A DNA stretch of 64,000 bases, from positions 15,558 to 79,557 of the forward strand of contig CAYRUB010000006.1 of NCBI GenBank assembly GCA_964427405.1. Reading direction: 5' to 3'. Source of the DNA: an uncultured Planctomycetales bacterium (GTDB taxonomy: Bacteria > Omnitrophota > Gorgyraeia > Gygaellales > Profunditerraquicolaceae). This document shows positions 32,123 through 53,181 of this stretch, in pieces (within the stretch, counting starts at the first letter, position 1; every line of letters starts with the position of its first letter). Position numbers and translations under genes: made by a program. The notes below the pieces were generated by a model, which did not search any database, was not told the DNA's origin, and worked only from the letters and a program-made list of their open reading frames with translations.

Positions 32123-32173
32123 ATTTTTTTGGTTAAGATTACTTAAAAATTTATTTTTAAATAGGGAAATAAG

Positions 32174-33214: not shown

Positions 33215-33220
33215 TAAAAA

Positions 33221-35514: not shown

Positions 35515-35550
35515 GAAACATATCAATTAACCATGACCATGGAGGTGTTT

Positions 35551-36825
35551 ATGGACATCAGAAAGATTAAGATTGAGGCGATTAATCCGGCGCCGTATAA
35601 TCCGCGTAAAGATCTTAAACCGGGAGACCCTGAGTATGAGAGCTTGAAGAAAAGCATACTTACGCATGGTTGTGTGCAGTTGCTTGTTTGGAATATCCGC
35701 ACAGGCAATCTTGCCGGCGGGCATCAGACATTTAAGGTGCAGCTTGAGCTTGGCGTAAAGGAAGTTCAGGTGTGCGTTGTTGATTTGTCTCTTGAGCAAG
35801 AAAAGGCGCTAAATATCGCCCTCAATAAAATTCAGGGAAGTTGGGACAATGAAAAACTCGCAGCGCTTTTAGATGAATTAACGAAAATACCGAATTTTGA
35901 TACAACCGTTACGGGCTTTAATGCCGTAGAGATTGGGCAGATTTTTGACCGCTACCAAGAACCTAAGGACGTGGATGACTATGATTTTCAATCGGCCCTG
36001 GATGATATTGTAGAACCAGTGACAAAAAGAGGCCAGGTAATTACGCTCGGCGAAAGGCATAAAGTTATGTGTGGAGATGCGACGAGTAAAGAGGATCTTA
36101 ATATACTTCTCCAAGGAGAGAAAGTTGCTCTTTTGGACATTGATTGGCCCTATAACGTAAATTATATGGGAGGAAGCTGCCCGCGTTCTGATACTCGTCC
36201 TAAGGGGTCTCGTAAATGGGACGCTATTTATTCAGACAATATGCCGCAAAATGAATATGAAGCATTCATGCTGAAGGTTCTTGTTAATATAAAACCTTAC
36301 TTAAATCCCGGCGCAGCTTTCTATCAGTGGCAAGCACATCGACAGCTTGGTCCGCTTTATCAGATTCTTACTCAACTTGATTTTCATGTTTCCTGCCTTA
36401 TCTGTTGGGCTAAAGAGTCAGCTGCAATATCTTATGCGGACTATAGTTTCCAGACAGAACAGGCGGTTTATGGATTTTTGAAAGGACAAAGTCACTATTT
36501 CGCAGGGAAGCCAGGCGAGTCGAATTTGTGGCAGGTAAATCGTGATTCTACTAAACTTTATTTGCATCCATGCCAGAAGCCAGCAATTTTAGCCGAACGC
36601 GCAATCAAAAATTCATCAAGACGTAATGATATAGTTCTCGATGTTTTTTTAGGATCAGGATCTGTTTTGATTGCTGCAGAAAACCTTGACCGGCGTTGTT
36701 TTGGGATGGAGCTTGATCCGCGCTATTGTGATGCGATTGTTAGGAGATATATTGCTTTCGTAGGCGTAGATAAGGTTTCGGAAGATTTGCGTAAGAAATA
36801 TCACAAGGAGGTTTCCAATGGATGA
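35551..36825 (+). CDS. ParB-like nuclease domain fused to beta-class DNA methyltransferase (phage-type ParB-MTase)
   Basis: N-terminal ParB/Srx-like region (KIKIEAINPAPYNPRK). MTase motif IV (DWPY-like) precedes motif I (VLDVFLGSGS). Start chosen at MDIRKI after GGAGG. Confidence 0.7.
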   Translation: MDIRKIKIEAINPAPYNPRKDLKPGDPEYESLKKSILTHGCVQLLVWNIRTGNLAGGHQTFKVQLELGVKEVQVCVVDLSLEQEKALNIALNKIQGSWDNEKLAALLDELTKIPNFDTTVTGFNAVEIGQIFDRYQEPKDVDDYDFQSALDDIVEPVTKRGQVITLGERHKVMCGDATSKEDLNILLQGEKVALLDIDWPYNVNYMGGSCPRSDTRPKGSRKWDAIYSDNMPQNEYEAFMLKVLVNIKPYLNPGAAFYQWQAHRQLGPLYQILTQLDFHVSCLICWAKESAAISYADYSFQTEQAVYGFLKGQSHYFAGKPGESNLWQVNRDSTKLYLHPCQKPAILAERAIKNSSRRNDIVLDVFLGSGSVLIAAENLDRRCFGMELDPRYCDAIVRRYIAFVGVDKVSEDLRKKYHKEVSNG

Positions 36826-37498
36826 TAGTAAATCAATATATGACGATGAAGAGCCTATTCTTTCTCTTATTCAGCAAATCAAAGATGGTACCTTAAATCC
36901 TAAAACTTTACCTAGGGAAAAAAGACAGTGGTGTGTAGAGTTTCTTTCTAGCGAAGGCTATACAGAGGCGCAGATTGCACAAGTAATAATGAGAGCCGAG
37001 AAAACTGTGTATCGTGATTTGATAGAGATACAGGATCGTAATGCCATGACGCCGGATATTAATTCGGCTAAACGCATTGTAGGAAATATGTTTCAGAAGG
37101 CTATGACACATCATAAGTATCTAATGCGACTTGCGCGCAACCCAGATGCTTCTAATGGAGAAAAAACTCAATCGGAGTTTCTGGCGTGGCGCGTTTTAAA
37201 GGAGGTGGTAGAAAAAATGCAAACATTAGGGTATCTTCCCCTGAAGCCTCAGGAGATTGTAGAAGATATTTTTCATCACGTAACAAATGGGAATGGTGAG
37301 GAAGGAATTACTGAAGCTAAAAATATGATAGGTGAGATTGAGCGCGCAGCAAAAGAAGCCGGAACGCTTGATCTAGAGACCGAAGAGAAGATTAGGGCTA
37401 TAAGGACAAAGATTGAGCAAGTAGAGATTAATCAGGAAATAAATAAACTCAAGAATAAAGAAAATAAACCAAATGACACAAAAGGAGACTCAAAATGA
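36818..37498 (+). CDS. Putative terminase small subunit / DNA-binding protein
   Basis: 226 aa; HTH-like AQIAQVIMRAEKTVYRDL; position immediately upstream of and overlapping terminase large subunit. Confidence 0.35.
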   Translation: MDDSKSIYDDEEPILSLIQQIKDGTLNPKTLPREKRQWCVEFLSSEGYTEAQIAQVIMRAEKTVYRDLIEIQDRNAMTPDINSAKRIVGNMFQKAMTHHKYLMRLARNPDASNGEKTQSEFLAWRVLKEVVEKMQTLGYLPLKPQEIVEDIFHHVTNGNGEEGITEAKNMIGEIERAAKEAGTLDLETEEKIRAIRTKIEQVEINQEINKLKNKENKPNDTKGDSK

Positions 37499-39126
37499 AA
37501 AATAATATCGTAAGTGACCTATCAAGGCTAAGAAGGCAGGAAGGCAGCAAGTCGCTGCTTGCGTTCGCAAAGTTATATATGAAGCATCATTTAGAATGCG
37601 AGCTATCCCCGGCTCATCTTGAAATATACCGTATTCTTGGTACAGCAACTACCGAGAGAGGTAAAAAGATTGCCATCGCCGCACCGCGCGATTTCGGAAA
37701 AAGCACTATGGTTACCTTAATTTACATGGTTTACAGTATTTGTTATTCGAAAGAGAAATTTATTGTGATTATTTCGAATACAGCTTCACAGGCAAACCAG
37801 ATATTAGATAACATCAAAAAGGAGCTAACGGAAAATGAATTGCTAAAGCTGGACTTTCCGGAAGTATTTGAATCAAATGGTAAATTTAAATTGTTGCGCT
37901 GGAGGCAGTCAGATATAATCACCCGCAATAAGGTTTTGGTTTTAGCATTAGGTTCAGGTCAGCAGATACGCGGACGCAGATTCGGAGTCGCCCGCCCGAC
38001 TTTAGTTGTGGCTGATGATTTGGAGGATTCCGAGAATACCTTTGGAAAAGAATCGCGAGATAAGATGCAAGACTGGTATGAAAAGTCGGTTTTAAAGGTA
38101 GGTTCGGAGGATACCAATTATATTTTCATTGGTAACCTTTATCATCCCTATAGTTTACTAAGCGAGTATGTTTGTCCGGATAAGTATCCAACGTGGATTA
38201 AGAGGGTGTATTCCGCCATTGTAGTTTGGCCTAGACGTATGGATCTTTGGGAGGATAAATGGGCTAACATATACAACCATAAGATAGAATTCAATGGGGC
38301 GAGCGGCCCTGTGGTAGCTTATCAATATTATCAAGAGAATCAAATAGCGATGGACGAAGGAACTGAGCTTCTCTGGAATGCGCGATACAGCTTGCACAAG
38401 CTAATGGGAATACGGCAAGAAAATGAGCTTAGTTTTCTCTCTGAATTTCAAAATACGCCAGTTAATCTCAGGGATTGCCTTCTTGACATAGACAATATCG
38501 TATACTGGGATACATCCGAGCGATCCGTTGATGACCTGCTAAAGTCATTAGGTGATAACGTAAGGTTTTATGGCGCATGCGATCCGAGCCTTGGGTTAAG
38601 CACGGTTAAGGGGGATTTTTCGGCTATTATCGTATTGGCAAAAGACGAAGCCTCTAAGACGCTATATATCATAGTAGCCGACATAGAGCGCCGGCCAATT
38701 GAAAAAATAGTTGATGATATTTTAGCTTATTCCCTGAGGTATAAATTTATTAAGTTTGGAATAGAGGGTAATCATTTCCAGCGAGTTCTTGTTGATTTAG
38801 TTAAGGAAAAGGGGGAGAAGGCAGGACTTTATATCCAGCTTGAGACAGTGATCAATAAGGATGACAAGATTGCGAGGATTCAGTCTTTGCGGACGTGTTT
38901 AAAAAGTGGGAACTTACAATTTAGCAAGAAACATAGACAACTTCTGGAGGAGTGCAGATATTTTCCGAAAGGCAAGCACGATGACGGATTGGATGCTTTA
39001 GAGATGGTAGTGAATCTATCTAATGATAATGGGTTTTCGTTCTGGTTTGCCGGCAGCACAAGGCCAAAGCCTTTCAGTGATGACGAAATAGGTCCCTATG
39101 GATACCGCGGATGGGGAAGAAGGTGA
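37495..39126 (+). CDS. Phage terminase large subunit
   Basis: ATPase P-loop IAIAAPRDFGKST, Walker B LVVADDLEDSEN, C-terminal RNase-H-like nuclease (YGACDPSLG...IIVLA...DDGLDALEM). Confidence 0.8.
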   Translation: MKNNIVSDLSRLRRQEGSKSLLAFAKLYMKHHLECELSPAHLEIYRILGTATTERGKKIAIAAPRDFGKSTMVTLIYMVYSICYSKEKFIVIISNTASQANQILDNIKKELTENELLKLDFPEVFESNGKFKLLRWRQSDIITRNKVLVLALGSGQQIRGRRFGVARPTLVVADDLEDSENTFGKESRDKMQDWYEKSVLKVGSEDTNYIFIGNLYHPYSLLSEYVCPDKYPTWIKRVYSAIVVWPRRMDLWEDKWANIYNHKIEFNGASGPVVAYQYYQENQIAMDEGTELLWNARYSLHKLMGIRQENELSFLSEFQNTPVNLRDCLLDIDNIVYWDTSERSVDDLLKSLGDNVRFYGACDPSLGLSTVKGDFSAIIVLAKDEASKTLYIIVADIERRPIEKIVDDILAYSLRYKFIKFGIEGNHFQRVLVDLVKEKGEKAGLYIQLETVINKDDKIARIQSLRTCLKSGNLQFSKKHRQLLEECRYFPKGKHDDGLDALEMVVNLSNDNGFSFWFAGSTRPKPFSDDEIGPYGYRGWGRR

Positions 39127-39613: not shown

Positions 39614-39675
39614 TTGCTATTTAACATGATTTATGGCAATGATTACCATGAGAGGAACTTATACCGGAGGTGACC

Positions 39676-40725
39676 ATGGATACAGAAAAGCGCAATGTGT
39701 GGCAAGTTGGTACTGGTAGTCAGGAGCGTTCCTACGGAAATATTTTCTTAAAATATGACGTAATGGCTGTAGGGCCGGGAGATGATGGTTTTTATAACGA
39801 GAAATTATATTCTCCTTACGGTGATATTAAAAACAGTATTAGGCGTTTTTATCAAAATGCCAAGAAAGGCGATTTAGTAGTTTTACGGTTAGGCACTGGC
39901 CAGGTGCTTGCGCTTGGCGAAATAGCGGATGACGGCCCTGTTATAAATGAGGAATTCGCTGACATTGACGACTATCACTTGCAGCATGTCCGCAGAGTAA
40001 GATGGTTCCCCAATACGGCGAAGGGTTTTCCCGTAAGAACGCTTGGTGGGCAGGTAAGAACTTTTGCAGGAGTTAACGCTTCCAGTGTACTTCGTTGGAT
40101 CGGAAGGGTGAGAGTTTCTTCTAAAGTGTTGCATAGGAAATTAAAGCATCTTCCTAAGCCATCAGTTAGTCTCTCGTCTCAGGAGTTAAAAAGAGGACTT
40201 GTTGCTTCTGGATTGTCTATGGAGCGAACTAATAAGGTTGTTAATAGACTTAATTCCTTGCGAATGATAGCGCAATGGTATAAAGATGAAGAAAAGAGAC
40301 TTGGAAAACGGCCATCTGAGCATGAAACGGTTGCTTACATGGTTATTCCATTCCTTCAATCGTTAGGCTGGATGCGCGAGAATACTGCTATTGAATGGAA
40401 TGGGGTTGACGTTGCCCTGTTTGATCGACTGCCGTCTAAAGATACATTTCTTCGCTGTGTAGTGGAGGCGAAAGCTTTTGGGAGTTCAGTCTTTAAGCCA
40501 TTTGAACAGGCTGCTGATTATGCGCGAGTAAAAGGGCGGGATCATTGTAAGAAATTAATTGTTACAGATGGAATACGCTACACATATTTTAAAAAGCAAG
40601 GTGGTGAGTTTAGTCCACAATCGAGGCCGCAAGCGTATTTGAATATCATGCGCATGAGAAAGAACTATCCTCTATATGACTGTGATGGAGCTGTGGAAGC
40701 GATTAAGGGGATGGTAATGGCATAA
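39676..40725 (+). CDS. Hypothetical protein with putative PD-(D/E)xK nuclease motif
   Basis: GVDVALFD ... CVVEAKAF (D ... ExK) in the C-terminal half. GGAGG RBS before ATG at 39676. Confidence 0.35.
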   Translation: MDTEKRNVWQVGTGSQERSYGNIFLKYDVMAVGPGDDGFYNEKLYSPYGDIKNSIRRFYQNAKKGDLVVLRLGTGQVLALGEIADDGPVINEEFADIDDYHLQHVRRVRWFPNTAKGFPVRTLGGQVRTFAGVNASSVLRWIGRVRVSSKVLHRKLKHLPKPSVSLSSQELKRGLVASGLSMERTNKVVNRLNSLRMIAQWYKDEEKRLGKRPSEHETVAYMVIPFLQSLGWMRENTAIEWNGVDVALFDRLPSKDTFLRCVVEAKAFGSSVFKPFEQAADYARVKGRDHCKKLIVTDGIRYTYFKKQGGEFSPQSRPQAYLNIMRMRKNYPLYDCDGAVEAIKGMVMA

Positions 40726-40983
40726 GTGGTATAGAATACTGTTAAAATAGGAAGCGCCGCGGCTTATAACCGTGGCGCTTTTGTTTAGAGGTTGTTTTCA
40801 GAGAGTCTTTCTGACGTTCCGTATTTCTGGTCACCTTAAGGGAATTACCTCTTGTGACATGTCTTGGGAGCGTTTGTTTGGCGAATACGTAAAAATACCC
40901 ACGGATTATAGGCAAGATTTCAAGCGTAAACCGTCCTTTTTATCCCTTAAGTTTTTATTTACGTGGTATAATATGAAACAAAA

Positions 40984-43900
40984 ATGGCTATCAAATCCTG
41001 CTTTATAGGTATCGATAAATATTTAGATCCTGGTATCCGAGACTTAACGGGAGCAGTTAAGGATGCAACTGTTTTATGGTCCTTATTTTCTGATACTGTC
41101 CCTTCCATACAGGCAGACATTCTCTGCAATGAACACGCCACCTTTGATCATGTGAAAAACAGTCTTTCTTCTCTTCTTGAGTCTGCTACCCAAGAAGATA
41201 CAATTATCATTTCATTTTCCGGACATGGCACAAATCACCATCGTCTCGTAACCCATAATACGTCCAAGGCAGCTCTGGATGATACCACGGTATCAATGGA
41301 TGAGCTGGCTGGTCTCTTCAGAAAATCTAAGGCCAACGCAATTCTTTTTATCCTAGATTGCTGTTTTAGCGGAGCTGTCCCCGCAAGAGTCATTGAAGAC
41401 AGCCCTGTCCCCCGGCAAGATACTTTTTCTTTTGAAAGCTTTGCCGGTAAAGGAAGAATATTAATTGCGGCATCAAGCGCCAATGAGCCAGCCTTCGAGT
41501 TACCTGGGTGCGGTCATGGGCTTTTAACAAAGGCCTTAATTGATGCATTACAAACTACAGATGATCAGGTTAACTTAGCATCGGCAATGGACAAAATTAC
41601 TCAGATGGTGAGAGCTGAGGCTGCACGCATTGGCGTAACACAAACGCCTGTTTGGTTTGGTTTCATAGAGGGAGGTTTAACTTTCCCCTCTCTTAGGCCA
41701 GGAGCTAATTTTTATAAGGCATTTCCGGAGAGCAAAGGAATTAGGATTAGTAAAGCGATCGCAGACCTGCAGGCATTTGGGATTTCCGCACCTATTCTTA
41801 TAGAATGGGCTAGGAATTTTAAAAACGGATTGAACAATCTACAACTAGAAGCAGTCAATAAGCACAGGATATTAGATGGTCAATCTTTGCTTGTGGTGGC
41901 ACCTACAAGTTCCGGTAAAACATTTATTGGAGAAATGGCCGCAGCAAAGGCAATATCTAAAGGTGAAAAGGTAATCTTTCTTTTGCCTTACCGCGCACTA
42001 GTAAATGAGAAATATGATTCTTTTGTTCAGTTATATACTGACAATTTAGGGATTCGTGTACTTCGATGCACAGGAGATTATTCTGATGAAACTGGTCCAT
42101 TTGTCCGTGGTAAATATGAAATCGCTATATTGACATTTGAAATGTTTCTCAATTTAGTCTTAGGGAATCCAACGTTATTAAGTCAGATTGGATTAATCGT
42201 GCTTGATGAAGCTCAATTCATTACGGATCCGACAAGAGGGATAACAGTTGAGTTATTGCTTACCTTTCTTTTAGCGAATGCTGAGAAAGGTATTAGACCT
42301 CAAATAATTGCCCTCTCAGCTGTCATTGGCGGTATAAACGATTTTGATCAATGGCTCGGAGTTGAGGCTATGATTTCGTATGAGCGTCCGGTACCCCTGG
42401 AAGAGGGCGTTATGGACCGTAGCGGTAATTTTCAATTTTTAACTCCTATTGCAGAAACTAAAATAACTTCATTAATTTCTTCATATAATATTGTGCAGCG
42501 GGGAAAGAATCCAAGTCAACAAGATATGATTGTTCCATTGATGCAATTCTTAATGAAAGATCTTAAAGAGAAAGTTATTATTTTTAGGAATACTCGCGGA
42601 CCCGCTGAAGGATGCGCTGGATATCTTAGTCGTGAATTAGGATTGCTCCCGGCAAATGATGTAATAGCACAATTGCCGAATCATGATCTTTCAACCACAT
42701 CTATGCATTTACGGGAATGTTTGTCCGGAGGCGTTGCTTTTCATAATACAAACCTTAACAGAATTGAAAAAGCGATTATAGAGCGTTCGTTTCGAGACCC
42801 CGCCGGTAAGATCAGGGTATTAGTGGCCACTACAACGCTGGCCGCTGGAATAAATACGCCGGCATCAACTGTTGTTTTGGCTGAACAGGAGTTTATCGGT
42901 GAAGATAACCGGCCATTTTCCATTGCAGAGTATAAAAACATGGCTGGTAGAGCTGGCAGGTTAGGTTTTAATGAGGATGGCAAGGCAATTATATTGGCTG
43001 AACAAATGCATGAAACACAGGTTCTTTTTAAGCGATACGTACTTGGAAAACCGGAGGCATTAAGTTCTTCGTTCGATTCTGAGAATGTTGAGACTTGGAT
43101 CATTCGGTTGTTGGCTCAAATTAAAGAGGTTCCCCGACATGATATTGTGCGATTACTGGCAAATACATACGGAGGATATTTAGCGAATCGCCAGAATCCG
43201 GGATGGCGAGAAAGTATAAAACAACATCTAGAGGAATTAATGGTAAAAATGTTATCGCTAGGTCTCTTGGAGCAAGAAGGAGATCTTGTACGGCTTACCT
43301 TACTGGGTCGGGTGTGTGGTCAATCTTCGTTATCGCTTCAATCTGCCATGCGACTTGTTGAATTATTAAAGTCCTTAGGGATGATCCAGGTTAGTTCTGA
43401 GTTTCTTATGGCGATTGTCCAAGGGTTACCCGAATCAGATAATACGTATACACCACTTTTCAAAAGAGGAAGCAAGGAAAGCGGAATGCCTCGGGTAGCA
43501 TCTGCCCGGGTTGGTAATGTTGTTGTTAATTTATTACAGAAGTTTGCCGGGGGAGAGATGTTTACATATTATGCCCGATGTAAAAGAGTAGCCATTTTAT
43601 TTGACTGGATTAATGGTGTGCCTACAGAAAGAATTGAGGCTGAATACACGATGAACCCTTACCAAGGTAAAGTAGGATATGGGGATATTCGGCGTTTTGC
43701 GGATGCCACTAGGTATCATCTTAGAACAGTCGCACCTATTGCTAGTCTTATTTTAGTTGATCGTTGCCCGACCGGTGAGTCAATAGATATTTTGCTAAAA
43801 CAATTAGAAGTTGGTGTGCCGAGAGACTCTCTTGATCTACTTAAACTACCAATCGGCTTTGAAAGAGGTGAATATTTGGCACTCTACGGAAAAGGTATCA

Positions 43901-44010
43901 AGACCTATGAAGCTTTCTGGGCTGTACCGGGAGAGAATCTTATTAGAATCCTTGGCTCAGATCGCGCTGCGGAAATTGAAAAGGCTCGAAGTAAATTAGT
44001 TGTTAAATAA
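40984..44010 (+). CDS. Caspase-like (peptidase C14) domain fused to SF2 (Ski2/Hel308-like) helicase with C-terminal winged-helix region
   Basis: Caspase His-Gly (ISFSGHG) and Cys (ILDCCFSGA) dyads. Helicase motifs I APTSSGKT, II VLDEAQF, III LSAV, VI MAGRAGRLG. 1008 aa. Confidence 0.7.
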   Translation: MAIKSCFIGIDKYLDPGIRDLTGAVKDATVLWSLFSDTVPSIQADILCNEHATFDHVKNSLSSLLESATQEDTIIISFSGHGTNHHRLVTHNTSKAALDDTTVSMDELAGLFRKSKANAILFILDCCFSGAVPARVIEDSPVPRQDTFSFESFAGKGRILIAASSANEPAFELPGCGHGLLTKALIDALQTTDDQVNLASAMDKITQMVRAEAARIGVTQTPVWFGFIEGGLTFPSLRPGANFYKAFPESKGIRISKAIADLQAFGISAPILIEWARNFKNGLNNLQLEAVNKHRILDGQSLLVVAPTSSGKTFIGEMAAAKAISKGEKVIFLLPYRALVNEKYDSFVQLYTDNLGIRVLRCTGDYSDETGPFVRGKYEIAILTFEMFLNLVLGNPTLLSQIGLIVLDEAQFITDPTRGITVELLLTFLLANAEKGIRPQIIALSAVIGGINDFDQWLGVEAMISYERPVPLEEGVMDRSGNFQFLTPIAETKITSLISSYNIVQRGKNPSQQDMIVPLMQFLMKDLKEKVIIFRNTRGPAEGCAGYLSRELGLLPANDVIAQLPNHDLSTTSMHLRECLSGGVAFHNTNLNRIEKAIIERSFRDPAGKIRVLVATTTLAAGINTPASTVVLAEQEFIGEDNRPFSIAEYKNMAGRAGRLGFNEDGKAIILAEQMHETQVLFKRYVLGKPEALSSSFDSENVETWIIRLLAQIKEVPRHDIVRLLANTYGGYLANRQNPGWRESIKQHLEELMVKMLSLGLLEQEGDLVRLTLLGRVCGQSSLSLQSAMRLVELLKSLGMIQVSSEFLMAIVQGLPESDNTYTPLFKRGSKESGMPRVASARVGNVVVNLLQKFAGGEMFTYYARCKRVAILFDWINGVPTERIEAEYTMNPYQGKVGYGDIRRFADATRYHLRTVAPIASLILVDRCPTGESIDILLKQLEVGVPRDSLDLLKLPIGFERGEYLALYGKGIKTYEAFWAVPGENLIRILGSDRAAEIEKARSKLVVK

Positions 44011-44084
44011 ATTAGGGCAATAAAAGATGACGGCTGTAATTTTTTAAAATAAAACATCACCATTTTTATCGGAAGTCGAATATC

Positions 44085-45728
44085 TTGAAAAAACATAAAC
44101 GTATATGGGGTCGGTGGATTTCTTATGAACCTTCATTTGCAGAGGGAGGGCAGGCACGATTGTATTTGGTTACCGATACCACTGGAGATCTCAATGGCGA
44201 ATATGTTCTTAAGGAACTCAAGAATCCTAATCGGCTGAATCGCTTTGACGTTGAACTTAAAGCAATTACATCGTTAGCTGTACATCCAAATATTGTTTCA
44301 TTGATTGATTCTGGTATTTATCGAGATCCTGATAAGCCTTGTTTCGTAATAATGAAAGCTGATCAAAATCTCGAGAAATTTATTTGTGATAATGTGATCT
44401 CAATCGATGAATTATTATTGATTTTTGATAAGATTTGCGATGGTGCAGCATATTTACATACAAATTTAATTATTCATCGTGACCTTAAACCAGAAAACAT
44501 TTTGATGTTTAAAAATGAACCTAAGATTGCTGATTTTGGGCTTTGCCTTATAGTTGACATAACAAGGTTTACCCCTTCTTCAGAAGTTATTGGTTCGCGA
44601 TTTTATATGGCTCCAGAAATGGAAGATGGCAGGCAACTAAATGTCGGTTTTGAAGTAGACGTTTATTCTCTTGGTAAAATTCTCTATTACTTGCTTTCAG
44701 GTGGCAAAATTTTCGCTCGAGAAAAATTTAATGATAAAGATTGGAAACTTTCAAGGTCAAAAGATGATTCTCGTTTAGATCTTTTTGATCCGGTTTTTAA
44801 AAAATCAATTGTTCCTGAACAAAGGAGTCGCTATAAAGATGCTAGCGAATTGCAGAAAGGATTCCGACAAGCGCGGGATAATTTTAATAAGCATCCACTA
44901 ACCACTCTATTTAAGAAGTTCGGAAGTATGAATAATGCATTCCGGGGATCAGAAGATAAACTTCAATCTATAAATGAAAACGAAATGTGCGAAATATTCA
45001 GCCATGCAAAGAAGCATGGAGTTGTTTTACCTCAAGCTGTTTTCAACGCCGCTTTCAACTCACTAACTACAAAATTGGCGCAACCATTCGCAGAGGCACT
45101 TTTAGAAAACGAGCCAACTTTAGATGCCCATTTTATTGCTATTGCAGCAGGGCGTATATTTTGTTTACCACAAGTAGAGGCAGCGTTTATTATTTGGTGG
45201 TTGAATTCTGAGCATTTTAATCGTTTAGCATTACACGCTTTAAGCTGTGCAGATAATAAGGTGTTAAATGCAATAGGGAATTGGAGTATTTTTACTCTTC
45301 AACATTGTAATGAAGTTTTGCAAAAATTGTCGGATAACTTTCATAATCTTAATTCAAAAGCGAAACAGAATTTTCTAGTTGCATCTAGAAAATCACCCTA
45401 CGAAAAAAAAGAGCAACTCCTTCTTGAATTAAGTCAAGACACTAACCTTGACAACGTTTCTCTTAGTGCAGTTGTCGCTGGATTATGTGCTTGTGCTTCC
45501 CAGACCGCAATCGCACGAGTAATTGAATTGGCTGATAGGCAAGATATGGACGAAAAGTTGACTGCCATTGGTGGCGGTATTATTTTAGGGTCGTCTAGAG
45601 ATACAGCACTACAGTTGAGCAAGCTTAGTTATAAAAACCCAGTGTTAAAGGTTCTATTGGACACATTGGATGAAGTGGAGAGTGATAATAAGGAAGATAA
45701 GGGGTTCATTGAGCAAGATGAAAAATAA
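44085..45728 (+). CDS. Hanks-type Ser/Thr protein kinase with C-terminal helical domain (TTG start)
   Basis: VLKELKN (VAIK-like), HRDLKPENIL, ADFGLC, YMAPE motifs; about 270-aa C-terminal extension of unknown function. Confidence 0.8.
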   Translation: MKKHKRIWGRWISYEPSFAEGGQARLYLVTDTTGDLNGEYVLKELKNPNRLNRFDVELKAITSLAVHPNIVSLIDSGIYRDPDKPCFVIMKADQNLEKFICDNVISIDELLLIFDKICDGAAYLHTNLIIHRDLKPENILMFKNEPKIADFGLCLIVDITRFTPSSEVIGSRFYMAPEMEDGRQLNVGFEVDVYSLGKILYYLLSGGKIFAREKFNDKDWKLSRSKDDSRLDLFDPVFKKSIVPEQRSRYKDASELQKGFRQARDNFNKHPLTTLFKKFGSMNNAFRGSEDKLQSINENEMCEIFSHAKKHGVVLPQAVFNAAFNSLTTKLAQPFAEALLENEPTLDAHFIAIAAGRIFCLPQVEAAFIIWWLNSEHFNRLALHALSCADNKVLNAIGNWSIFTLQHCNEVLQKLSDNFHNLNSKAKQNFLVASRKSPYEKKEQLLLELSQDTNLDNVSLSAVVAGLCACASQTAIARVIELADRQDMDEKLTAIGGGIILGSSRDTALQLSKLSYKNPVLKVLLDTLDEVESDNKEDKGFIEQDEK

Positions 45729-45876: not shown

Positions 45877-46488
45877 ATGAATAAAACTATAATAGTTTTT
45901 AACGAAAGAGCAAGGTTTAAGGCAGAAAATGAAATGCTTATTAATAATTTTGAAATATTGAATAGGATTTTATTTGATGCTAGAAATTTTTATGAAATTT
46001 GGTTTGGCTACCTAAGGACGAAAAGTAAAAGTAAATATTTCATCACTTTTCTAAAATATAAAGATTTCTTTGAAACCATAGGATATTCTTGCATTACGAG
46101 TTTGACTATAGATTTATTTAAACTATATGACTCAGGTCAAGAATCTTATAGTATTCTTCATTTAATTAACGATATCAACGAGAGAAGCTTACTGAGTAGT
46201 ACAGATAAGAGAAATATTCGTATAAAAAAGAAGCAAGCAATAATAATATGGGGAAAAGTAAAAGAATTAAGACATAAATTATTTGCACATAGGGATAAAA
46301 ATTTAACCCTAAAAGAAATATACGCTATTGCTAATATAACGCCAAATGATTTTCGAGATTTGACTCAATATACTCTGGAAATTCTAAATTATATTGCTCC
46401 AGTGTTGCATAAGAATAAAATAAGATTCCGTAGAGAAGTGAGAAACGATGCAGTGAATCTATTACGGATACTAATGGAAGCTCAATAG
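45877..46488 (+). CDS. Hypothetical protein (possible HEPN/Abi-like, Rx5H motif)
   Basis: 203 aa, very AT-rich; RHKLFAH fits the HEPN Rx4-6H pattern. Otherwise unrecognised. Confidence 0.3.
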   Translation: MNKTIIVFNERARFKAENEMLINNFEILNRILFDARNFYEIWFGYLRTKSKSKYFITFLKYKDFFETIGYSCITSLTIDLFKLYDSGQESYSILHLINDINERSLLSSTDKRNIRIKKKQAIIIWGKVKELRHKLFAHRDKNLTLKEIYAIANITPNDFRDLTQYTLEILNYIAPVLHKNKIRFRREVRNDAVNLLRILMEAQ

Positions 46489-46518
46489 TATCCCTTTGTT
46501 AATGGGGGGTCAATATAC

Positions 46519-47334
46519 ATGTTTAGTGAAACGTTTAAAGCCCTAAACAATGAGGCACAGTTCACCAGAGAAATACTTGGCTCAGGCGCTTCACAGATTA
46601 GAAACGCTACCTACGCAACTAAGGGCATTTACTTCCAGGCATTTATAAGTCTCTCTACTGGATTTGAAAGGATCGGAAAACTTTGTTTAATGCTTGATCA
46701 TTTTATTGATCATGATGGTGAGTTTCCTGATTACAACTATATGAAGAATGAAATTAGGCACAATATATGTGTTATCTATGAAAAATCACAATCGGTGATT
46801 ACAAAACGTTCAATATCCATGAAGTTTCTGAACAACCTAAATGATCCCATTCATCAATCAATACTGAGAATTATCTCCGAGTTCGCTCAAGGAGATCGTT
46901 ATTCTAACATTGATTTGATTGTGGGGAGGCAACATGAGAGAGATCCTATCGCGTTATGGTTTATGGAAGTAGATAAGCCATTATATGAGACTCGCGTATC
47001 AAAGAAGAAAAAGGAATCTATCAATAGTAACGCCGCTGGCATTGCTTCAATACTTGACCTCTACGTCATGGTTAGGCATACATCTGAGACTGGTAGCGAA
47101 ATCACGGACGTAGAAGATGCAAGCCGCAGAACTGGAATGCAAAAAGCTGTTGTTTCGTATCGCCAGCTATATGTGCTTCAAATCATTAGGTATTGGGTTG
47201 AACTATTATCTTCTCTACAAGACATAGCAATGCAGACTGAGAGCGAAGATATTCCTTTCTTCAATGAAGTATTCGCGCCTTTTTATAACGACGACTCTTA
47301 TATTAGAACGCGAAAAACTTGGGATACTTTTTAA
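46519..47334 (+). CDS. Hypothetical protein (271 aa)
   Basis: Clean ORF; no recognisable domain. Confidence 0.3.
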   Translation: MFSETFKALNNEAQFTREILGSGASQIRNATYATKGIYFQAFISLSTGFERIGKLCLMLDHFIDHDGEFPDYNYMKNEIRHNICVIYEKSQSVITKRSISMKFLNNLNDPIHQSILRIISEFAQGDRYSNIDLIVGRQHERDPIALWFMEVDKPLYETRVSKKKKESINSNAAGIASILDLYVMVRHTSETGSEITDVEDASRRTGMQKAVVSYRQLYVLQIIRYWVELLSSLQDIAMQTESEDIPFFNEVFAPFYNDDSYIRTRKTWDTF

Positions 47335-47788
47335 GCCATATTGTTTTAGATATTTTAGTTCAAGTTTAATTTCTGTTTCTTGAAATATCTGTTTTTGTAC
47401 TCTGAAGCGGAGAAATTTTCCCGCACCAAATTTTGCCGGAGCGAGCGTAGCTGTAGGGTGGCGTGTTCGCACCACGCCCGCCACCATGTTTTTGTTTTGA
47501 ACCACAGACTGCAAGAGGCGGGGCATCCCGCGACCCTGGGTTTCTTTGATTTTGGAAGCAGGAACGGACAACCCTGAACCTTCAATTTATATCCTACCTG
47601 CATACAGAGAGTTTTTCTGTCGCGACGTATTTCTGGTCCGCCAAGATGACTCAGAAAATGATTTACAATGGGGAAGAGGAGGTATAGAATAAACTCATCA
47701 TAAAGAGGTGGTAAATGAGGTTCAAATAGCAAAATTTTAAGGCAACTCCTAAAAATAAGGGGTTGCCTGTTTATTTTAAGGAGGCGTT

Positions 47789-48049
47789 ATGGCTAGAAAA
47801 TTAGTTGAATACGGAGTGTTTCTAAATATACACCCAAGTGGTTACGATAAAAGAGTAATGATTCATAAGCTACCTTGTGCGCATTATAAGCAGCATCTTA
47901 AGAAAGGAAGAGCGACCGGGATGTACACTTTTCATAAAGACTGTTTAACCTTTGATGAGGTAATTAAGCGAACTTCGGAATGGGCCTTAGATTGGCATGC
48001 TCAGATTAAGATTTGCAAAAGTTGTCGGGGAAATTGGAAACTTATTTAA
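47789..48049 (+). CDS. Hypothetical small Cys/His-containing protein (86 aa)
   Basis: ORF preceded by AAGGAGG RBS; CxxH...CKSC residues. Confidence 0.3.
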   Translation: MARKLVEYGVFLNIHPSGYDKRVMIHKLPCAHYKQHLKKGRATGMYTFHKDCLTFDEVIKRTSEWALDWHAQIKICKSCRGNWKLI

Positions 48050-48130
48050 TTCCAATGAAGAATGAAAATGGAGCTGCCTCTAATTTTTGAAAAATAGAAA
48101 GTTTGAATTTCGTTAAGGAGTGATTACTAA

Positions 48131-49825
48131 ATGATTAAGTGGATAAGAAAGATTATAGGTAATAAGAGACAAGAAAAACAATACAGTATATCGAAGGAAA
48201 AAATTGAGTATAGACTACAGAAAGAAGACACCAAGCATTACAAATGCTTTGTGTTAATGCCTATTGGTAAAGAGGGTACTGTAGAATACTCAAATAATAT
48301 GCTGGTATTCCATGAGATAATCAAACCCTGTGTAGTTAATAGTGGCTATGCTATTGACTGTTATTATTTAGATTTAGTCTCAGAATCTGGAGATATAGCT
48401 AAACAGGGGATACTAGCTTTAAAAGATGATACTATTGTAATAGCAGATTTAAGGCGTAGAAATCCAGCAGTAAGCTATGAATTAGGCATAAGACATACGC
48501 TTGGCAAGAGATCCATATTGGTTTGCTCAAGTCAATCCGATCATTTTTTCTATACTATCAGACATCGGGCTATTAAGTATAAAATAGATGGAACTTCTAA
48601 TCAGGAATTTTATGATAAATTATCATCTTGTATTGAGGACATATTAATTAATCCAGAAAAATCAGACAACCCTGTAAGCGATATTTTAGGGGGTATTAAT
48701 AGCATTGCTGGAGTGCAGTTATTAGAAAGGGAGGAATCCGGAGAAACAAAAGTGGTTACTTCTGATAAAGAAAAAGATTTCCACCGGTTAGTAGCGGCTG
48801 GAATACAATATGAAAATGTTAATAGACACGATTTAGCTATTGGTTGTTTTGAGGATGCTTTAAAAATAAAACCCGATGATATAGGTCTTCATATTCAGTT
48901 GAGTATTATATACGGTGAGAAGGTCGGAGATAGAAGTAGTAAAGAAAAAGCAATAGAGCATTGTAAGGACGTATTAAGGATTGATAAAAACAATATTTCA
49001 GCAAAGTTTAATTTAGCTATATATACGAATCATTTAAAGGGTTCGAAAGAAAGCTTGCCAATTTATTTAGAAGTTGAGTCTTTAATTAGAATGCAAGGGT
49101 TATTGGGTTCGGAAATAGATGGAAAGTCAAATCTTTTCATAGGACATGATTATAAGAATGCGGGAGACAAGCCAGAGGCTGAAAAACGTTATGAAAAGGC
49201 GATAGCCATATTAAAGAAACTAGTCGATCAAGGAGATAAGGGAAGCGCTTTTTGGTTAACTGATGCAAAAAAGAATTTAAGAAGTATTTTTAAAATAACT
49301 TCTATTTTGAGTGACGAAGAAACAATATTTGTTAATTCAAGTACAGTCATTTTACTTCCGACAAATATTAAATCAGTTGAAGCTTCGATTCATCCTCTAT
49401 GGAAGCAATTTGATCAGAGGCAGCCGGAATTAGAAGGCGCAAAGTGGATTGCAGATCGCCCGACAATAACTAATGAGGAAGCTTTAAAGGGGGGAATATA
49501 TACATTTACTAGAGAATTTGATTTTAACTCTGAAATTGCGCAATTGCGTTCAGCAGAGATATGTTTACTTGTTGACGATTTTTGTGAATTAATAGTAAAT
49601 AGCACACGATTGGGGAGAGTTCATGGATATGAGGAATTACATAGATTCGTTATTACGCAATACATCAAAAAAGGCAAAAATATCGTTCAGTTTATAGTAG
49701 AGAATATTGCAGCTGAAGAATTTAATGATCCCCATAAGAACCCAGAGTTTTATAAATCCACTGAGAAATATCTTTTTAATCCATATGGTTTGAAATATTC
49801 AATTATTTTAGAGTATAGATGTTAA
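48131..49825 (+). CDS. Nucleoside 2-deoxyribosyltransferase-like (TIR/SLOG-related) domain + TPR repeats + C-terminal domain
   Basis: N-terminal CFVLMPIG...NPAVSYELGIRHTLGKRSILV resembles the Nuc_deoxyrib_tr catalytic-Glu region. Central TPR-like repeats (LAIGCFEDALKIKPDD...). Confidence 0.4.
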   Translation: MIKWIRKIIGNKRQEKQYSISKEKIEYRLQKEDTKHYKCFVLMPIGKEGTVEYSNNMLVFHEIIKPCVVNSGYAIDCYYLDLVSESGDIAKQGILALKDDTIVIADLRRRNPAVSYELGIRHTLGKRSILVCSSQSDHFFYTIRHRAIKYKIDGTSNQEFYDKLSSCIEDILINPEKSDNPVSDILGGINSIAGVQLLEREESGETKVVTSDKEKDFHRLVAAGIQYENVNRHDLAIGCFEDALKIKPDDIGLHIQLSIIYGEKVGDRSSKEKAIEHCKDVLRIDKNNISAKFNLAIYTNHLKGSKESLPIYLEVESLIRMQGLLGSEIDGKSNLFIGHDYKNAGDKPEAEKRYEKAIAILKKLVDQGDKGSAFWLTDAKKNLRSIFKITSILSDEETIFVNSSTVILLPTNIKSVEASIHPLWKQFDQRQPELEGAKWIADRPTITNEEALKGGIYTFTREFDFNSEIAQLRSAEICLLVDDFCELIVNSTRLGRVHGYEELHRFVITQYIKKGKNIVQFIVENIAAEEFNDPHKNPEFYKSTEKYLFNPYGLKYSIILEYRC

Positions 49826-50245
49826 GGAGATATTCAAAAATAATCTTTTTCTCTTTCTCTAAAATCGTGGGACTTTTTTGAAAAAGACACAGCTTGGCGA
49901 GACGTGGATAAAGCAGGTTACTTCTTTTAAAAAATAGAAACACCCGTAATTTATAGTCAAACGAATGAATTAAGATTAAAATGGGATATGCAACTCCCTG
50001 GACTCCCAGTTTATCGGGGGAGCGAGGTGCTGTCGGAGCTCGACGTATCTGCGCCGAGCTCCTACTCAGGGTAACAGGCGACAGTGCCCAAACAGGTTCA
50101 CATATACAGTATACAACAATGCTAGAGGGATTCTTTGTTTCAATCATAGTACAGATATTGGATTATATCAATTCTACAGAATATTTTAACTCTTTTGCGT
50201 TAGAATAAATAAGAGCATGCTAATTCATAAGCTAATGAGGGAGCT

Positions 50246-51328
50246 ATGTCAACAGCCATAATATTAGGAGCTGGTTTTTCTAGATGTGCAGGTTTACCAA
50301 TACAGAGTGAATTCTCTAAATTCCTTTTATCTCCAGAACTTTCCCGAACAATTTTAGAGAAAACAATTACAGAGGTTATTAGTGCGTTTATTAGTGATGT
50401 TTTTGGATGGAGACGTGGCAAGCCATTTCCAAGCATGGAAGACTATTTCACTTGTTTAGATTTATCGGCTAACACCGGTCACCACTTAGGAATTCAGTAT
50501 ACTCCTAAAAAATTAAGAGCTATTAGAAGAATGACGATTTATAGAATTTTTCAAATATTGGATTATAACTATCGAAATTCTTCAGAAATAGCGCATTTTT
50601 TAAAGATGGTTTTTAATAAAGGGACTCCAGGGTTTATTGTGCTTAATTGGGATATTGTTTTGGAAAAAGCAATCCATCTTCAACCATTAAGAAATAAAAT
50701 TAACTATGGTTTTGAGTGTTATGAATGGGATACAAAACGTAGGAAAAACTTTGAAGATGACGATATTTTTGTATCAAAGATAAATGGATCTAGCAATTGG
50801 GTGTATTGTGAAAACTGCACAAGCATATTTTATGATCTTAGTACAAAAATCGCTCTTCATAAAATGATGGGTCTTATAAAAGCAGATTTTAGATTATTTA
50901 GAGAAGGATTTACCGATAGACATTTCGATGAAGCGCTGGGGACTTCTCCTCAAAGCCGAAAATGTCATTTTTGCAACAATATGTTAGCAACGCATATTGC
51001 TACCTTTAGTTTTAGAAAATCGTATAGGACATTTGCCTATCCTGCTATTTGGCATAATGCTCAAAGCATATTGTCTAAAAGCAATGAATGGATCTTTGTT
51101 GGTTATTCACTACCAGATGCTGATTTTGAATTTAAACATATATTAAAAGTTTCCGAATTAGCGTTACGGAAAAAAAAGAATCAGCCCCCTCTTAAGATTA
51201 ATGTAGTGGTAAAAAATGATAATGCTGCAAAAAATAGATACCAATCATTTTTTGGTAACCGAATAACCAAAATATGGCAGGGCGGTCTTCAGGAGTTTGT
51301 AAAGAAAAATACAATGAGCAGGAAATAA
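50246..51328 (+). CDS. SIR2-like protein with Zn-ribbon insert, paralog C
   Basis: IILGAGFSRCAGLP N-terminus, NGSSNWVYCENC...CHFC zinc-ribbon, FVGYSLPDADFE C-terminal motif. Same length (360 aa) as paralog B. Confidence 0.6.
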   Translation: MSTAIILGAGFSRCAGLPIQSEFSKFLLSPELSRTILEKTITEVISAFISDVFGWRRGKPFPSMEDYFTCLDLSANTGHHLGIQYTPKKLRAIRRMTIYRIFQILDYNYRNSSEIAHFLKMVFNKGTPGFIVLNWDIVLEKAIHLQPLRNKINYGFECYEWDTKRRKNFEDDDIFVSKINGSSNWVYCENCTSIFYDLSTKIALHKMMGLIKADFRLFREGFTDRHFDEALGTSPQSRKCHFCNNMLATHIATFSFRKSYRTFAYPAIWHNAQSILSKSNEWIFVGYSLPDADFEFKHILKVSELALRKKKNQPPLKINVVVKNDNAAKNRYQSFFGNRITKIWQGGLQEFVKKNTMSRK

Positions 51329-51480
51329 ATACCCTTCCCGTAACATTATTTACCCTGTATACAGAGAGTCTTTCTGCCGCGCCGTATTTCTGGGCGTCCT
51401 TACCGGGGATACCTCTCAAATTTGCCCATAGCTGTTTACAGAGGGGGCTTCCCCTTGTCCAATATTACTGCCCGGCTTAA

Positions 51481-51625
51481 GAAGGAATGCCTAGTGGCAT
51501 AGAAACGCGTTGACAAATCAAATAGTTATGATAAATTAACGTCGTAAGTAGATTAAATCGTCCCGAGTTGTGAAGGGGTAAATCCCGGACGTTAAAAAAA
51601 TAAAACCTTCGTTGGGCTTAATACT
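51481..51625 (+). repeat. Copy 1 of a ~145-bp duplicated promoter/leader module (IR ATGCC-N4-GGCAT, TTGACA-16-TAAATT, terminator-like leader)
   Basis: Near-identical to 52988-53132. Contains an operator-like inverted repeat, a promoter and a GC stem plus T-run just before the gene start. Confidence 0.6.
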
Positions 51626-51654
51626 CGGCGGAGGTTTTTATCTTTTCTAAACAA

Positions 51655-52878
51655 ATGAATATCGGCAATAAATATGAAGATAAATTGGCCGCGTTAGTTG
51701 CTGACCCCTTGCTCATTGATTATGTGCATTTGAGGCCGAAATATAAAAAAGCACTTATTTTGCGCGAATTATGTGATGTTCTTATAGAGTATCAGCCATT
51801 GGCGATCCCTATTCAATTGAAAGTGCAAGGCGTATTAAGGAAAAATTCGGATGATTGGCTAAAAAAAGAGACTGCTAACGCTACAAAACAAATTTTGGGG
51901 GCATTAAGAAGCTTAAATCTTAATCGTGTTGTTATTGAAAATCCTAGGACCGGTATAATTGAATTTCCCCCTAAAACATTAAAGGCAAAACATGGAATAA
52001 TTATTTTGGATTATAAGGGAGATCCTAGTGTTTTGTCGGCAGCTTGTCTTCGTAGAACAAAAGATAAAATACTGCTGCATTATCTAACGTTAGATGATTT
52101 TTCAATACTCTGCCAACATTTAATGACACTACCCGATTTAATGGATTATTTGGATAAAAGGGGAGAGATTCCAGAATGGGCCTTGCCACGTTTGAACGAT
52201 GAGCGCAATGTCTATGCTTACTACCTCACCCATGATAATTATTTCGGTCCTACGGTAAAAATAAACGATTTTGTTGGCGAGTGGGATAGGTTAACTCAAA
52301 AACATGCTAAAGAATATAAAGAAAAGCTTGAGGAGGATAACCAGGCAGAATTATTTAATTTACTTCTCAAACAAATCCACAAAGAAGATCCCGATCAATC
52401 TACTTATTCACCAGATTTTATTCAAAGAGATTCTGAAAGAGAACGTATTTTGAGAAAAGAAGTTACTAGAAAGCTTAGTAGCATAAGACGTCTTTATCGA
52501 AGAGAAATATCAAAGACATTGATAGAAAAATGTCAGAAAGCAAGCACAAGCGAGAAAGGGTTTAACTATTTTTGTTTTATGCCAGAGGGAGATAATACCG
52601 CATATGTCTTTTTGTCTTCTAGACACCCAAGAAAAGAACGCATTACTCAACTTTGTGCAATAGTAAATTGCGTGCTTAATATTCAAGATGTGGATTATGT
52701 CTTGGGTGTAGCTACAGAGAATTTAGGAGTAAAAGGCAGATCAACTGACTTTATAATGATTGACAAAACCATGAAGGATTGCGATCCAAAGGCGATTGAA
52801 GAAAGTAAGCGAATATTTAAAAATATGGAATATCGGCATATATATGATTTTCCTGCAAACAAACAAATTATTATCTAG
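51655..52878 (+). CDS. Hypothetical protein (407 aa)
   Basis: Clean ORF directly downstream of the duplicated leader; no recognisable domain. Confidence 0.35.
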   Translation: MNIGNKYEDKLAALVADPLLIDYVHLRPKYKKALILRELCDVLIEYQPLAIPIQLKVQGVLRKNSDDWLKKETANATKQILGALRSLNLNRVVIENPRTGIIEFPPKTLKAKHGIIILDYKGDPSVLSAACLRRTKDKILLHYLTLDDFSILCQHLMTLPDLMDYLDKRGEIPEWALPRLNDERNVYAYYLTHDNYFGPTVKINDFVGEWDRLTQKHAKEYKEKLEEDNQAELFNLLLKQIHKEDPDQSTYSPDFIQRDSERERILRKEVTRKLSSIRRLYRREISKTLIEKCQKASTSEKGFNYFCFMPEGDNTAYVFLSSRHPRKERITQLCAIVNCVLNIQDVDYVLGVATENLGVKGRSTDFIMIDKTMKDCDPKAIEESKRIFKNMEYRHIYDFPANKQIII

Positions 52879-52987
52879 CATAGGGTTTTAGAAGAAGTGC
52901 CCATCTTTTATGATAAACAAACGAATAGCAAAAGGATTGACCTACGGCATTCCCATAGGGACGCAGTAATATCATTCTTGGGATTGA

Positions 52988-53132: not shown

Positions 53133-53181
53133 GCCGGCGGGGGTTTTTGTTTTTAAGTTGTTTATATAATTTATAAAGAAT

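Follow-up and report, generated by a model that had tools for sequence, protein, structure and literature searches.

HamMAB, a form of the Hachiman system, contains a trypsin–HamA fusion protease that is activated through oligomerization by DNA and by ATP hydrolysis in the helicase (PMC12799240), and type IV Thoeris employs promiscuous, Arg-specific caspase-like effectors (10.1101/2024.10.24.620036). Hel308 has been described as absent from bacteria (PMC12278908), and a census of 2012 already counted 12 prokaryotic metacaspases with helicase domains (PMC3501461). Here we describe a gene that joins a caspase-fold protease to a Hel308-type helicase in one chain. It lies in a 64,000-nucleotide stretch of DNA, hereafter the window, from an uncultured Planctomycetales bacterium (assembly GCA_964427405.1, contig CAYRUB010000006.1, positions 15,558–79,557), and we refer to its product as the fusion. 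No paper naming or testing a caspase–Hel308 fusion came to light, with the coverage of the literature being incomplete. The only label given to the family in public records is "DEAD/DEAH box helicase", and a full-length model of it is lacking from PADLOC 2.0. On balance, we read the fusion as a self-contained, horizontally mobile conflict protein, most likely anti-phage, that carries its sensor and its effector in the same chain.

Results

Domain organization of the fusion

The fusion gene is an open reading frame (ORF) at 40984–44010 on the plus strand, encoding 1008 amino acids (aa) plus a stop codon, and its domains were assigned with Pfam, PADLOC and NCBIfam. A first-pass annotation, made from the letters of the window, had described a single ORF of this length with a caspase His/Cys dyad and a superfamily 2 (SF2) helicase core, followed by a kinase gene. 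The translation contains every motif that it quoted: FSGHG at aa 78–82, DCCFSG at 125–130, APTSSGKT at 306–313, DEAQ at 408–411, SAV at 445–447 and MAGRAGRLG at 653–661. The domain searches that it proposed recovered Peptidase_C14 at aa 7–224 (E = 1.3e-13; 51.6 bits, above the PF00656 gathering cut-off of 21.4), DEAD (E = 1.1e-21), Helicase_C (E = 1.1e-09) and, in the next gene, Pkinase; archaeal helicase domain 4 is matched weakly in the fusion.

The first 235 residues (40984–41688, end approximate) form a caspase/metacaspase-fold protease domain, with His81 encoded at 41224–41226 and the Cys126/Cys127 pair at 41359–41364. Right behind the catalytic cysteine lies a loop that is predicted to be disordered (aa 129–147; 41368–41424) and that is a candidate autoprocessing or regulatory element. 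A helical linker, recognized from the secondary structure of the model, connects protease and helicase (approximately aa 236–285; 41689–41838) and contains F247-P248-E249 and W275, all invariant in an alignment of 25 sequences. The SF2 motor core (41839–43053) consists of RecA1 (aa ~286–465), with the Walker A lysine K312 at 41917–41919, DEAQ at 42205–42216 and SAV, and RecA2 (aa ~466–690), with the motif VI sequence GRAGR at 655–659. The remainder (43054–44007) is made up of Hel308-type accessory domains, of which the approximate boundaries are ~691–800 for the winged helix, ~801–925 for the ratchet, including a long helix at 899–923, and ~926–1008 for a domain resembling a helix-hairpin-helix (HhH). 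The full-length model has a predicted local distance difference test (pLDDT) score of 81.5 and a predicted template modelling score of 0.69.

The catalytic residues of both halves are retained almost without exception. In the 25-homologue alignment G80-H81-G82, D125-C126-C127-x-S129-G130, G311-K312-T313, D408-E409-x-Q411, S445-A446-V447 and G655-R-A-G-R659 are invariant. Among genomic homologues, H81 is present in 77/77, and C126 and C127 each in 77 of the 78 sequences that reach the N-terminus, the Cys pair being lost in a single one; the helicase motifs persist throughout (K312, D408/E409 and R656/R659, 80/80 each). The degenerate dyad that the first-pass annotation had named as its possible undoing is thus not what the alignments contain. 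Mean pairwise identity is 0.52 in the caspase domain, 0.64–0.65 in the RecA domains and 0.48–0.50 in the winged helix and ratchet. These values indicate that the protease and the helicase are both under purifying selection, with the caspase constrained like the rest of the protein. Judging from the motifs, the fusion is real and intact, with complete catalytic sets in both halves.

The helicase half

The NCBIfam models of Hel308 span aa 282–1000 of the fusion, equivalent to model positions 26–697 of 704 (E = 1e-85 to 3e-60). The scores fall below the equivalog cut-offs (288.5 bits against 887 for PRK02362 and 245.9 against 1200 for helicase_Hel308), which by that measure makes the fusion helicase a distinct paralogous clade and no Hel308 ortholog. 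In a profile search of PDB sequences the leading matches are Hel308 from three archaea (E = 5e-74 to 5e-68), with 9b15 covering aa 287–998; the POLQ helicase domain follows at E ~1e-44. Sequence identity to Hel308 is 21–26%, and in Foldseek the full-length model gives TM-scores of 0.75–0.83 when normalized to the Hel308 target. The protein has all five domains of Hel308 (RecA1, RecA2, winged helix, ratchet and HhH) together with the SF2 motifs, and both sequence and model therefore assign it to the true five-domain Hel308-type helicases, within a separate bacterial clade.

The first-pass annotation had compared the helicase with that of Hachiman. The resemblance is real, since HamB profiles are the best PADLOC matches (E = 2e-35 to 1e-16), and it is secondary: these matches are partial and confined to stretches of RecA1 or RecA2, whereas the match to Hel308 runs over the full length. 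The HamB structure 8vx9_B is reached in the PDB profile search at E = 4e-20 over aa 296–459, that is RecA1 only, and HamB does not appear among the 50 best structural matches of the fusion model. These comparisons suggest that the fusion resembles Hachiman more in logic than in ancestry.

We also searched 1.84 billion cluster representatives with the helicase alone. The top 150 matches include 55 caspase fusions, down to ~31% identity and in part with dyad motifs that have diverged to HFSCHG and DSCFSG, as well as 28 full helicases (sister-clade proteins among P0364–P0447) that have no caspase and carry instead a C-terminal extension of 120–245 aa, of two kinds, and one helicase (P0332) with a different N-terminus of 246 aa. 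Because the same helicase clade carries other terminal extensions in place of the caspase, these proteins fit a picture in which the Hel308-like helicase is a sensor with exchangeable output domains. By eye, the extension with the pattern GEPD...(E/T)xK...GRPDFHELA looks like a restriction endonuclease, the other kind, which ends in ...GxYRL, looks like an OmpR-type winged helix, and the N-terminus of P0332 looks like a cyclase; Pfam gave nothing significant for any of the three.

The protease half

The N-terminal domain has the caspase–hemoglobinase fold and the conserved His–Cys dyad. Metacaspases carry the motif D-x-C-H-S-G around the catalytic cysteine, and MALT1, which is Arg-specific, has D462-M-C464. 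Both cysteines of the fusion are conserved, and C127 is more likely than C126 to be the catalytic one, because D125-C-C127-F-S-G lines up with these two motifs. Asp125 precedes Cys127 by two residues, the arrangement of MALT1 and metacaspases, and for this reason we also predict that the protease prefers Arg or Lys at P1.

The loop that follows the cysteine has pLDDT values below 50 at aa 129–145 in one model and 129–140 in the other. It is predicted to be disordered, yet it is better conserved than the caspase domain as a whole (identity 0.60 against 0.52) and stands where the intersubunit linker of caspases sits. Two of its positions are always basic in the 78 homologues: residue 135 is Arg in 63 and Lys in 15, and residue 144 is Arg in 76 and Lys in two. 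A conserved but disordered basic loop next to the Asp125 arrangement raises the possibility that an Arg/Lys-specific protease processes or gates itself here, and R/K135 and R/K144 may mark the site.

Homology searches with the caspase domain alone gave 57 matches, nearly all of them fragments of the fusion family. By these matches the caspase clade appears essentially private to the fusion, which implies that the fusion is old and that its two halves evolved together. The nearest NCBIfam caspase model is NF047832, "caspase, EACC1-associated type" (E = 1e-26), at 93.6 bits against a cut-off of 140.

Distribution and mobility of the family

The fusion is matched by 1578 proteins at E ≤ 1e-10. 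The top 120 listed homologues are 998–1038 aa long and, apart from the window's own copy (100%), 56–77% identical to the fusion, and 119 of the 120 contain both the C14 and the DEAD domain, P0013 being the one that has no C14 match. In a scan of one genome per species the fusion was found in 207 of 185,579 species genomes (~0.1%), from which 80 representative loci, including that of the window, were kept for the survey of neighbourhoods. These come from Acidobacteriota, Cyanobacteria, Alpha-, Beta- and Gammaproteobacteria, Bacteroidota, Planctomycetota, Bacillota, Mycobacterium, bacteria of the Candidate Phyla Radiation and one archaeon of the Methanotrichaceae; Bordetella bronchiseptica and Pseudomonas luteola are among the proteobacterial carriers. 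All show 48–59% identity over the best aligned segment. Such identity together with a patchy spread across phyla implies horizontal transfer.

Seventeen plasmids in PLSDB have full-length copies, annotated, like the rest of the family, as nothing other than helicases. Of 24 matching plasmid records, nine are conjugative and four mobilizable, and one plasmid copy adjoins a Tn3 transposase and has genes for PLD and Fic/VbhA in its vicinity. The 2.9 million viral contigs of IMG/VR yielded no homologue, and copies encoded by phages were accordingly rejected.

Gene neighbourhoods and the search for a partner

ORFs were called in all 80 loci and the neighbours were clustered. The contexts are variable, rich in defence genes and mobile, and they are not housekeeping contexts, the other finding that the first-pass annotation had said would speak against it. 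Immediate neighbours match QatA/KAP nucleoside triphosphatases (NTPases; 7), AbiJ_NTD4/PDC-S32 (5), PDC-S54 (4), LmuB of Lamassu (3), PLD nucleases (3), MkoB of Mokosh (2) and type I restriction enzymes (2). There are also serine recombinases (3), tyrosine integrases (2), ArdC-N genes at two loci and mad3-type genes.

No conserved neighbour emerged among ORFs of at least 70 aa, the largest cluster being present in 12 of the 80 loci, and among ORFs of 25–200 aa within 900 nucleotides (nt) on either side none was conserved beyond these same 12 loci, all proteobacterial. In the 12 (L049, L051, L056, L058, L059, L067, L070, L072, L073, L075, L077 and L078) a gene of ~298 aa (c1) stands upstream of the fusion, mostly with a gap of 1–11 nt; in 10 of them a gene of ~400 aa (c4) lies upstream of c1, and a QatA-like gene follows the fusion directly in seven, with a fuller QatABCD-like set in six. 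The c4–c1–fusion–Qat block is probably one shared mobile island, though it may instead be a lineage-specific operon.

Several candidate partners were considered and set aside. The c4–c1 pair and QatABCD belong to that one shared block of 12 loci. A hidden small pro-effector of the EACC1 or Pepco kind has no conserved candidate among the short ORFs surveyed, and the caspase-only search, made for other partners of this caspase clade, returned almost solely fragments of the same family. The gene upstream of the fusion in the window (39670–40725), encoding 351 aa, was considered as a concealed HamA-like nuclease. It has a C-terminal D..ExK-like motif (VDVALFD...VVEAKAF), and its matches are all weak (HSDR_N_2 at E = 0.12, PDC-S02 at 2e-4 and DUF8426), with none in the PDB. 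None of the 80 loci has a homologue of it beside the fusion, and in the window a strong terminator lies between the two genes. The fusion most likely acts alone, with no conserved partner gene.

The neighbouring kinase

The gene after the fusion (44085–45728, plus strand) starts with TTG and encodes a Hanks-type Ser/Thr kinase of 547 aa, in which a kinase domain (aa ~15–270) is followed by a helical C-terminal domain. The first-pass annotation had named HRDLKPEN, DFG and APE in it and described a C-terminal part of ~270 aa that it could not assign; the motifs are there, Pkinase matches aa 37–221 (E = 1.1e-32), and the C-terminal ~277 aa have no Pfam match even at E = 1. The invariant residues of the kinase family alignment are K43, E57, HRDxKPxN at 131–138 (D133, N138), DxG at 150–152 (D150) and APE at 176–178. 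In PADLOC the kinase matches PD-T4-6 profiles (E = 3e-35 to 1e-16), the best aligning aa 3–211 to positions 4–213 of 327, and mad6 (1e-36). The NCBIfam model MADS6 scores 88.2 bits against a cut-off of 460, and no other mad genes were detected among the scanned genes of the window. The public annotation (P0121, 522 aa) begins 25 codons downstream of the TTG; the deposited start is probably too short, because homologues cover the 547-aa form including its glycine-rich loop.

The proposed survey of gene neighbourhoods found a kinase next to the fusion only in the window and at one of the 79 other loci (L076). The kinase of L076 is a different protein of 422 aa, similar in its kinase domain only (E = 5e-17), and is presumably the one neighbour that matched mad6. 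In four close relatives, with 73–77% identity to the fusion, the genes that follow are DUF4062-HATPase, UvrD-like helicase or small unassigned genes and never a kinase. The full-length kinase family comprises ~40 clusters of ~540 aa with 29–61% identity, and at the five loci examined, all lacking the fusion, its settings were lambdoid prophages of Enterobacter hormaechei, the vicinity of a TIR gene and a position behind a CHAT-TPR protein. In the last of these (L084, kinase homologue P0129), a CHAT-TPR protease of 1111 aa and a gene of 164 aa immediately precede the kinase, a protease–kinase neighbourhood that was seen once. The guanine plus cytosine (GC) fraction drops from 0.40–0.43 in the fusion gene to 0.33–0.35 from the kinase onward. 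We therefore rejected the kinase as a partner of the fusion: the apparent two-gene pair is an adjacency within an island, since the kinase family occurs without the fusion and close relatives of the fusion occur without the kinase. In our judgement the kinase is an independent single-gene module of the PD-T4-6/Stk2 kind. The first-pass view of this combination as characteristic of conflict systems holds for the island and for the contexts of the homologues, and fails for a functional pairing of the two proteins.

The surrounding island and local signals

The fusion gene lies within an island of ~31 kb that extends from a tRNA-His gene (24730–24804) to ~56 kb, where a KdpD-like sensor kinase is encoded at 56270. 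A 3' repeat of the tRNA-His that would mark the second boundary was not found within the window. The tRNA is followed by a large serine recombinase (25118–26728), and the island contains a HerA/NurA/SIR2 row, a ParB–methylase, an orphan terminase-like gene, AbiU2, TPR, SIR2-like and DUF4238 genes. At 25118–34303, the serine recombinase and a DUF2924 gene on the minus strand, beside the tRNA, are succeeded by a row of HerA-like (DUF87), NurA-like, N6/N4 methylase, DUF4917/AbiH-like and SIR2_2 genes, a stretch that resembles a further candidate defence cluster within the island. At 35533–39126 there are a ParB_N–methyltransferase fusion, a 226-aa protein and a gene like a terminase large subunit (phrog_38, E = 1e-89), with no other phage structural genes seen near it; this orphan packaging module could point to a satellite-like element. 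Downstream of the kinase (45877–54426) the row of defence-type genes continues with HEPN_AbiU2 (45877–46488), a 271-aa gene of no assigned family, a 564-aa TPR protein whose end domains match no assigned family, a weakly SIR2-like gene (50246–51328), a likewise unassigned 407-aa gene and DUF4238 (53182–54426). Elsewhere in the window (16111–16517) ARAGORN predicts a transfer-messenger RNA with an unusual 29-aa tag, ANTQVSRLGTFVTPSFTARPMFVPAFGLN, lacking the usual LAA-type tail.

A hairpin at 40752–40786 (plus strand), with a GC-rich stem of 11 bp and a T-run, resembles an intrinsic terminator; it ends the preceding gene of 351 aa and stands between that gene and the fusion (RNA folding energy –25.9 kcal/mol, z = –3.1, equalled by one of 200 shuffles). 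A possible extended –10 element, TGgTATAAT, can be read at 40964–40972 (plus strand), 11 nt before the ATG. A consensus promoter scan did not list it, as it has no –35 match; if it is a promoter, the mRNA of the fusion would be nearly leaderless. The first-pass annotation had placed terminator-like hairpins downstream of both the fusion and the kinase, and neither was supported: the 74-nt gap behind the fusion folds no better than shuffled sequences (z = +0.62), and the one hairpin behind the kinase is AT-rich and has no T-run (z = –0.65).

Discussion

A self-contained defence protein of this composition could work as a one-chain caspase that is activated by DNA structure, without a second messenger, adaptor or pro-effector, and that kills or arrests the infected cell through broad proteolysis after Arg and Lys. 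This would make the family a new and widespread single-gene defence, a proposal that we consider plausible while placing it somewhat short of probable. In the reading that we favour, and hold to be somewhat more likely than not, the C-terminal three quarters would act as a Hel308-type helicase with predicted 3'-to-5' activity on DNA, loading on single-stranded 3' tails, forks and other replication or damage intermediates that arise in infection, in the way of Hel308 and HamB. Binding to DNA and the turnover of ATP would switch on the N-terminal protease, with its His81–Cys127 dyad, either by a conformational change or by gathering several molecules on the DNA, and the basic disordered loop could be the site where the protein cleaves or gates itself. 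The active protease would cut many cellular or phage proteins after Arg or Lys and so stop the infected cell, in the manner of the type IV Thoeris caspase and of PCaspase. We propose a broad range of targets in view of the lack of any conserved partner or pro-effector gene beside the fusion.

The terminator-bounded start of its own that the gene has in the window and the island of defence-type genes around it support a self-contained defence protein. Other observations weigh against it. Its chief shortcoming is that both function and mechanism are argued from context and analogy: the defence role, the DNA trigger, the mode of activation, the P1 specificity and the targets are what we infer from the described systems. 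The protease may have a specific substrate that is encoded in trans. Many sensor-fused defence proteases typically have a dedicated pro-effector next to them (MBL, EACC1 or Pepco), and there is none here. The tallies of defence genes are raw counts without a matched background, and most immediate neighbours of the fusion carry no annotation. The alternative end domains of the sister clades have no significant Pfam match. The absence of the family from IMG/VR fits a cellular defence gene and is no proof of one, and the 74-nt gap without a terminator makes co-transcription with the kinase possible in this one genome.

That last observation belongs to a two-gene reading, in which the kinase senses infection and phosphorylates or activates the fusion, or the protease processes the kinase. 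The genes are on the same strand, and the kinase directly downstream of the fusion at L076 and the kinase homologue behind a CHAT-TPR protease at L084 mean that adjacency of a protease and a kinase recurs occasionally. We nevertheless regard this reading as very improbable, given that one of 79 other loci has a kinase neighbour, and that of a different type, that four close relatives have other genes downstream, that the kinase family does without the fusion at all five loci inspected, and that GC changes from ~0.42 to ~0.34 at the gene boundary. We also give little credence to actual membership of the fusion in Hachiman, as a variant in which a caspase fused to HamB replaces the HamA nuclease, beyond the similarity in logic. 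HamB heads the PADLOC matches and HamMAB demonstrates that Hachiman admits protease fusions; the affinity is restricted, however, to RecA1 or RecA2 stretches, Hel308 is matched over the full length at 5e-74, HamB reaches 4e-20 over aa 296–459 and is missing from the 50 best structures, and DUF1837 occurs neither among the scanned genes of the window nor as a conserved neighbour.

The full Hel308 architecture would also suit a bacterial Hel308 orthologue serving in housekeeping or stress-related DNA repair, with the caspase-like domain as a regulatory or scaffolding, non-immune part, and one relative (P0005) does adjoin trehalose and ion-transport genes. A gene present in ~0.1% of species genomes, scattered across phyla and found on plasmids and by transposases, recombinases and defence genes makes a poor candidate for such a role. 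The equivalog scores far under their cut-offs (288 against 887; 246 against 1200) point the same way, and the strictly kept catalytic residues of the protease argue against a mere scaffold, so that we hold this explanation to be quite improbable. The mobility itself could instead mean that the fusion is a weapon of mobile elements, which helps a plasmid or island to become established, cleaves host defence proteins, or serves in competition between elements or in addiction. The 17 plasmids with full-length copies, the conjugative share of the plasmid records (9/24), the ArdC-N neighbours at two loci, the serine and tyrosine recombinases nearby and the integrative island that carries the window copy along with an orphan terminase-like gene are all consistent with it. 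Defence genes usually ride on such elements too, however, so this context does not discriminate; the neighbours are mostly of defence type and not transfer genes, and no copy was found in the viral contigs of IMG/VR. We consider a weapon of this kind unlikely, and we retain the self-contained defence protein as our interpretation.

If the fusion is an autonomous defence, it is a compact single-gene system that ties the sensing of DNA structure by a helicase directly to caspase-type proteolysis, two themes that have so far been joined only via separate proteins, namely the trypsin–HamA protease and pro-nuclease in HamMAB and the TIR-made signal in type IV Thoeris. In the fusion, bacteria would then have a one-chain parallel to the eukaryotic scheme that leads from a nucleic-acid sensor to a caspase, and among their immune sensors there would be true Hel308-type helicases whose outputs can be exchanged. 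The family is tractable, with one gene, clear catalytic residues and carriers in more than 200 species and on 17 plasmids, although its members are hidden in public annotation under a helicase label. It could reveal how the conformational cycle of a helicase becomes protease activation, and it is relevant to how Hel308/POLQ-type helicases evolved and to the ancient roots of caspase-based cell death.

Among described proteins, Hel308 (Hjm, HELQ) and the helicase-like domain of POLQ share with aa ~282–1000 of the fusion the same five-domain architecture and SF2 motifs of the DExQ/H type. The fusion differs in its N-terminal caspase and linker, seen in no solved Hel308, and in being bacterial, rare and mobile. 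The likeness to Hachiman and HamMAB lies in the use of a Ski2/Hel308-like helicase as a sensor of infection or DNA integrity that controls a toxic effector, a role that we assign to the fusion by analogy. Unlike these systems it has neither HamA/DUF1837 nor an MBL pro-nuclease, and its protease is of the caspase fold and joined to the helicase, whereas that of HamMAB is trypsin-like and joined to HamA. The first-pass annotation had already noted that HamA is missing; DUF1837 was found neither among the scanned genes of the window nor in the neighbour families listed for the 80 loci (25 of 90). The same genes and listed families contain no TIR domain and no MBL-fold family.

With type IV Thoeris and the PCaspase of type III-B CRISPR the fusion has in common a caspase-fold cysteine protease as the presumed defence effector. 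Activation of those proteases depends on a TIR-made nucleotide or on an upstream protease, whereas the presumed switch of the fusion is the helicase to which it is attached, and it has no TIR, SAVED or CHAT partner. Avs/EACC1-caspase, Canu CanABC and trypsin–MBL likewise combine an NTPase sensor with a fused protease domain. Compared with such sensor–protease modules, described in 2025, the sensor here is an SF2 helicase and not a STAND NTPase, and no dedicated pro-effector accompanies it. The neighbouring kinase, for its part, resembles the PD-T4-6/Stk2 kinases in its intact Hanks core and in standing alone in prophages and islands, and differs in its own C-terminal domain of ~277 aa. We see the fusion as an uncharacterised, widespread and probably autonomous helicase–caspase defence candidate, a variant of the known kind in which a sensor NTPase is combined with a protease effector.

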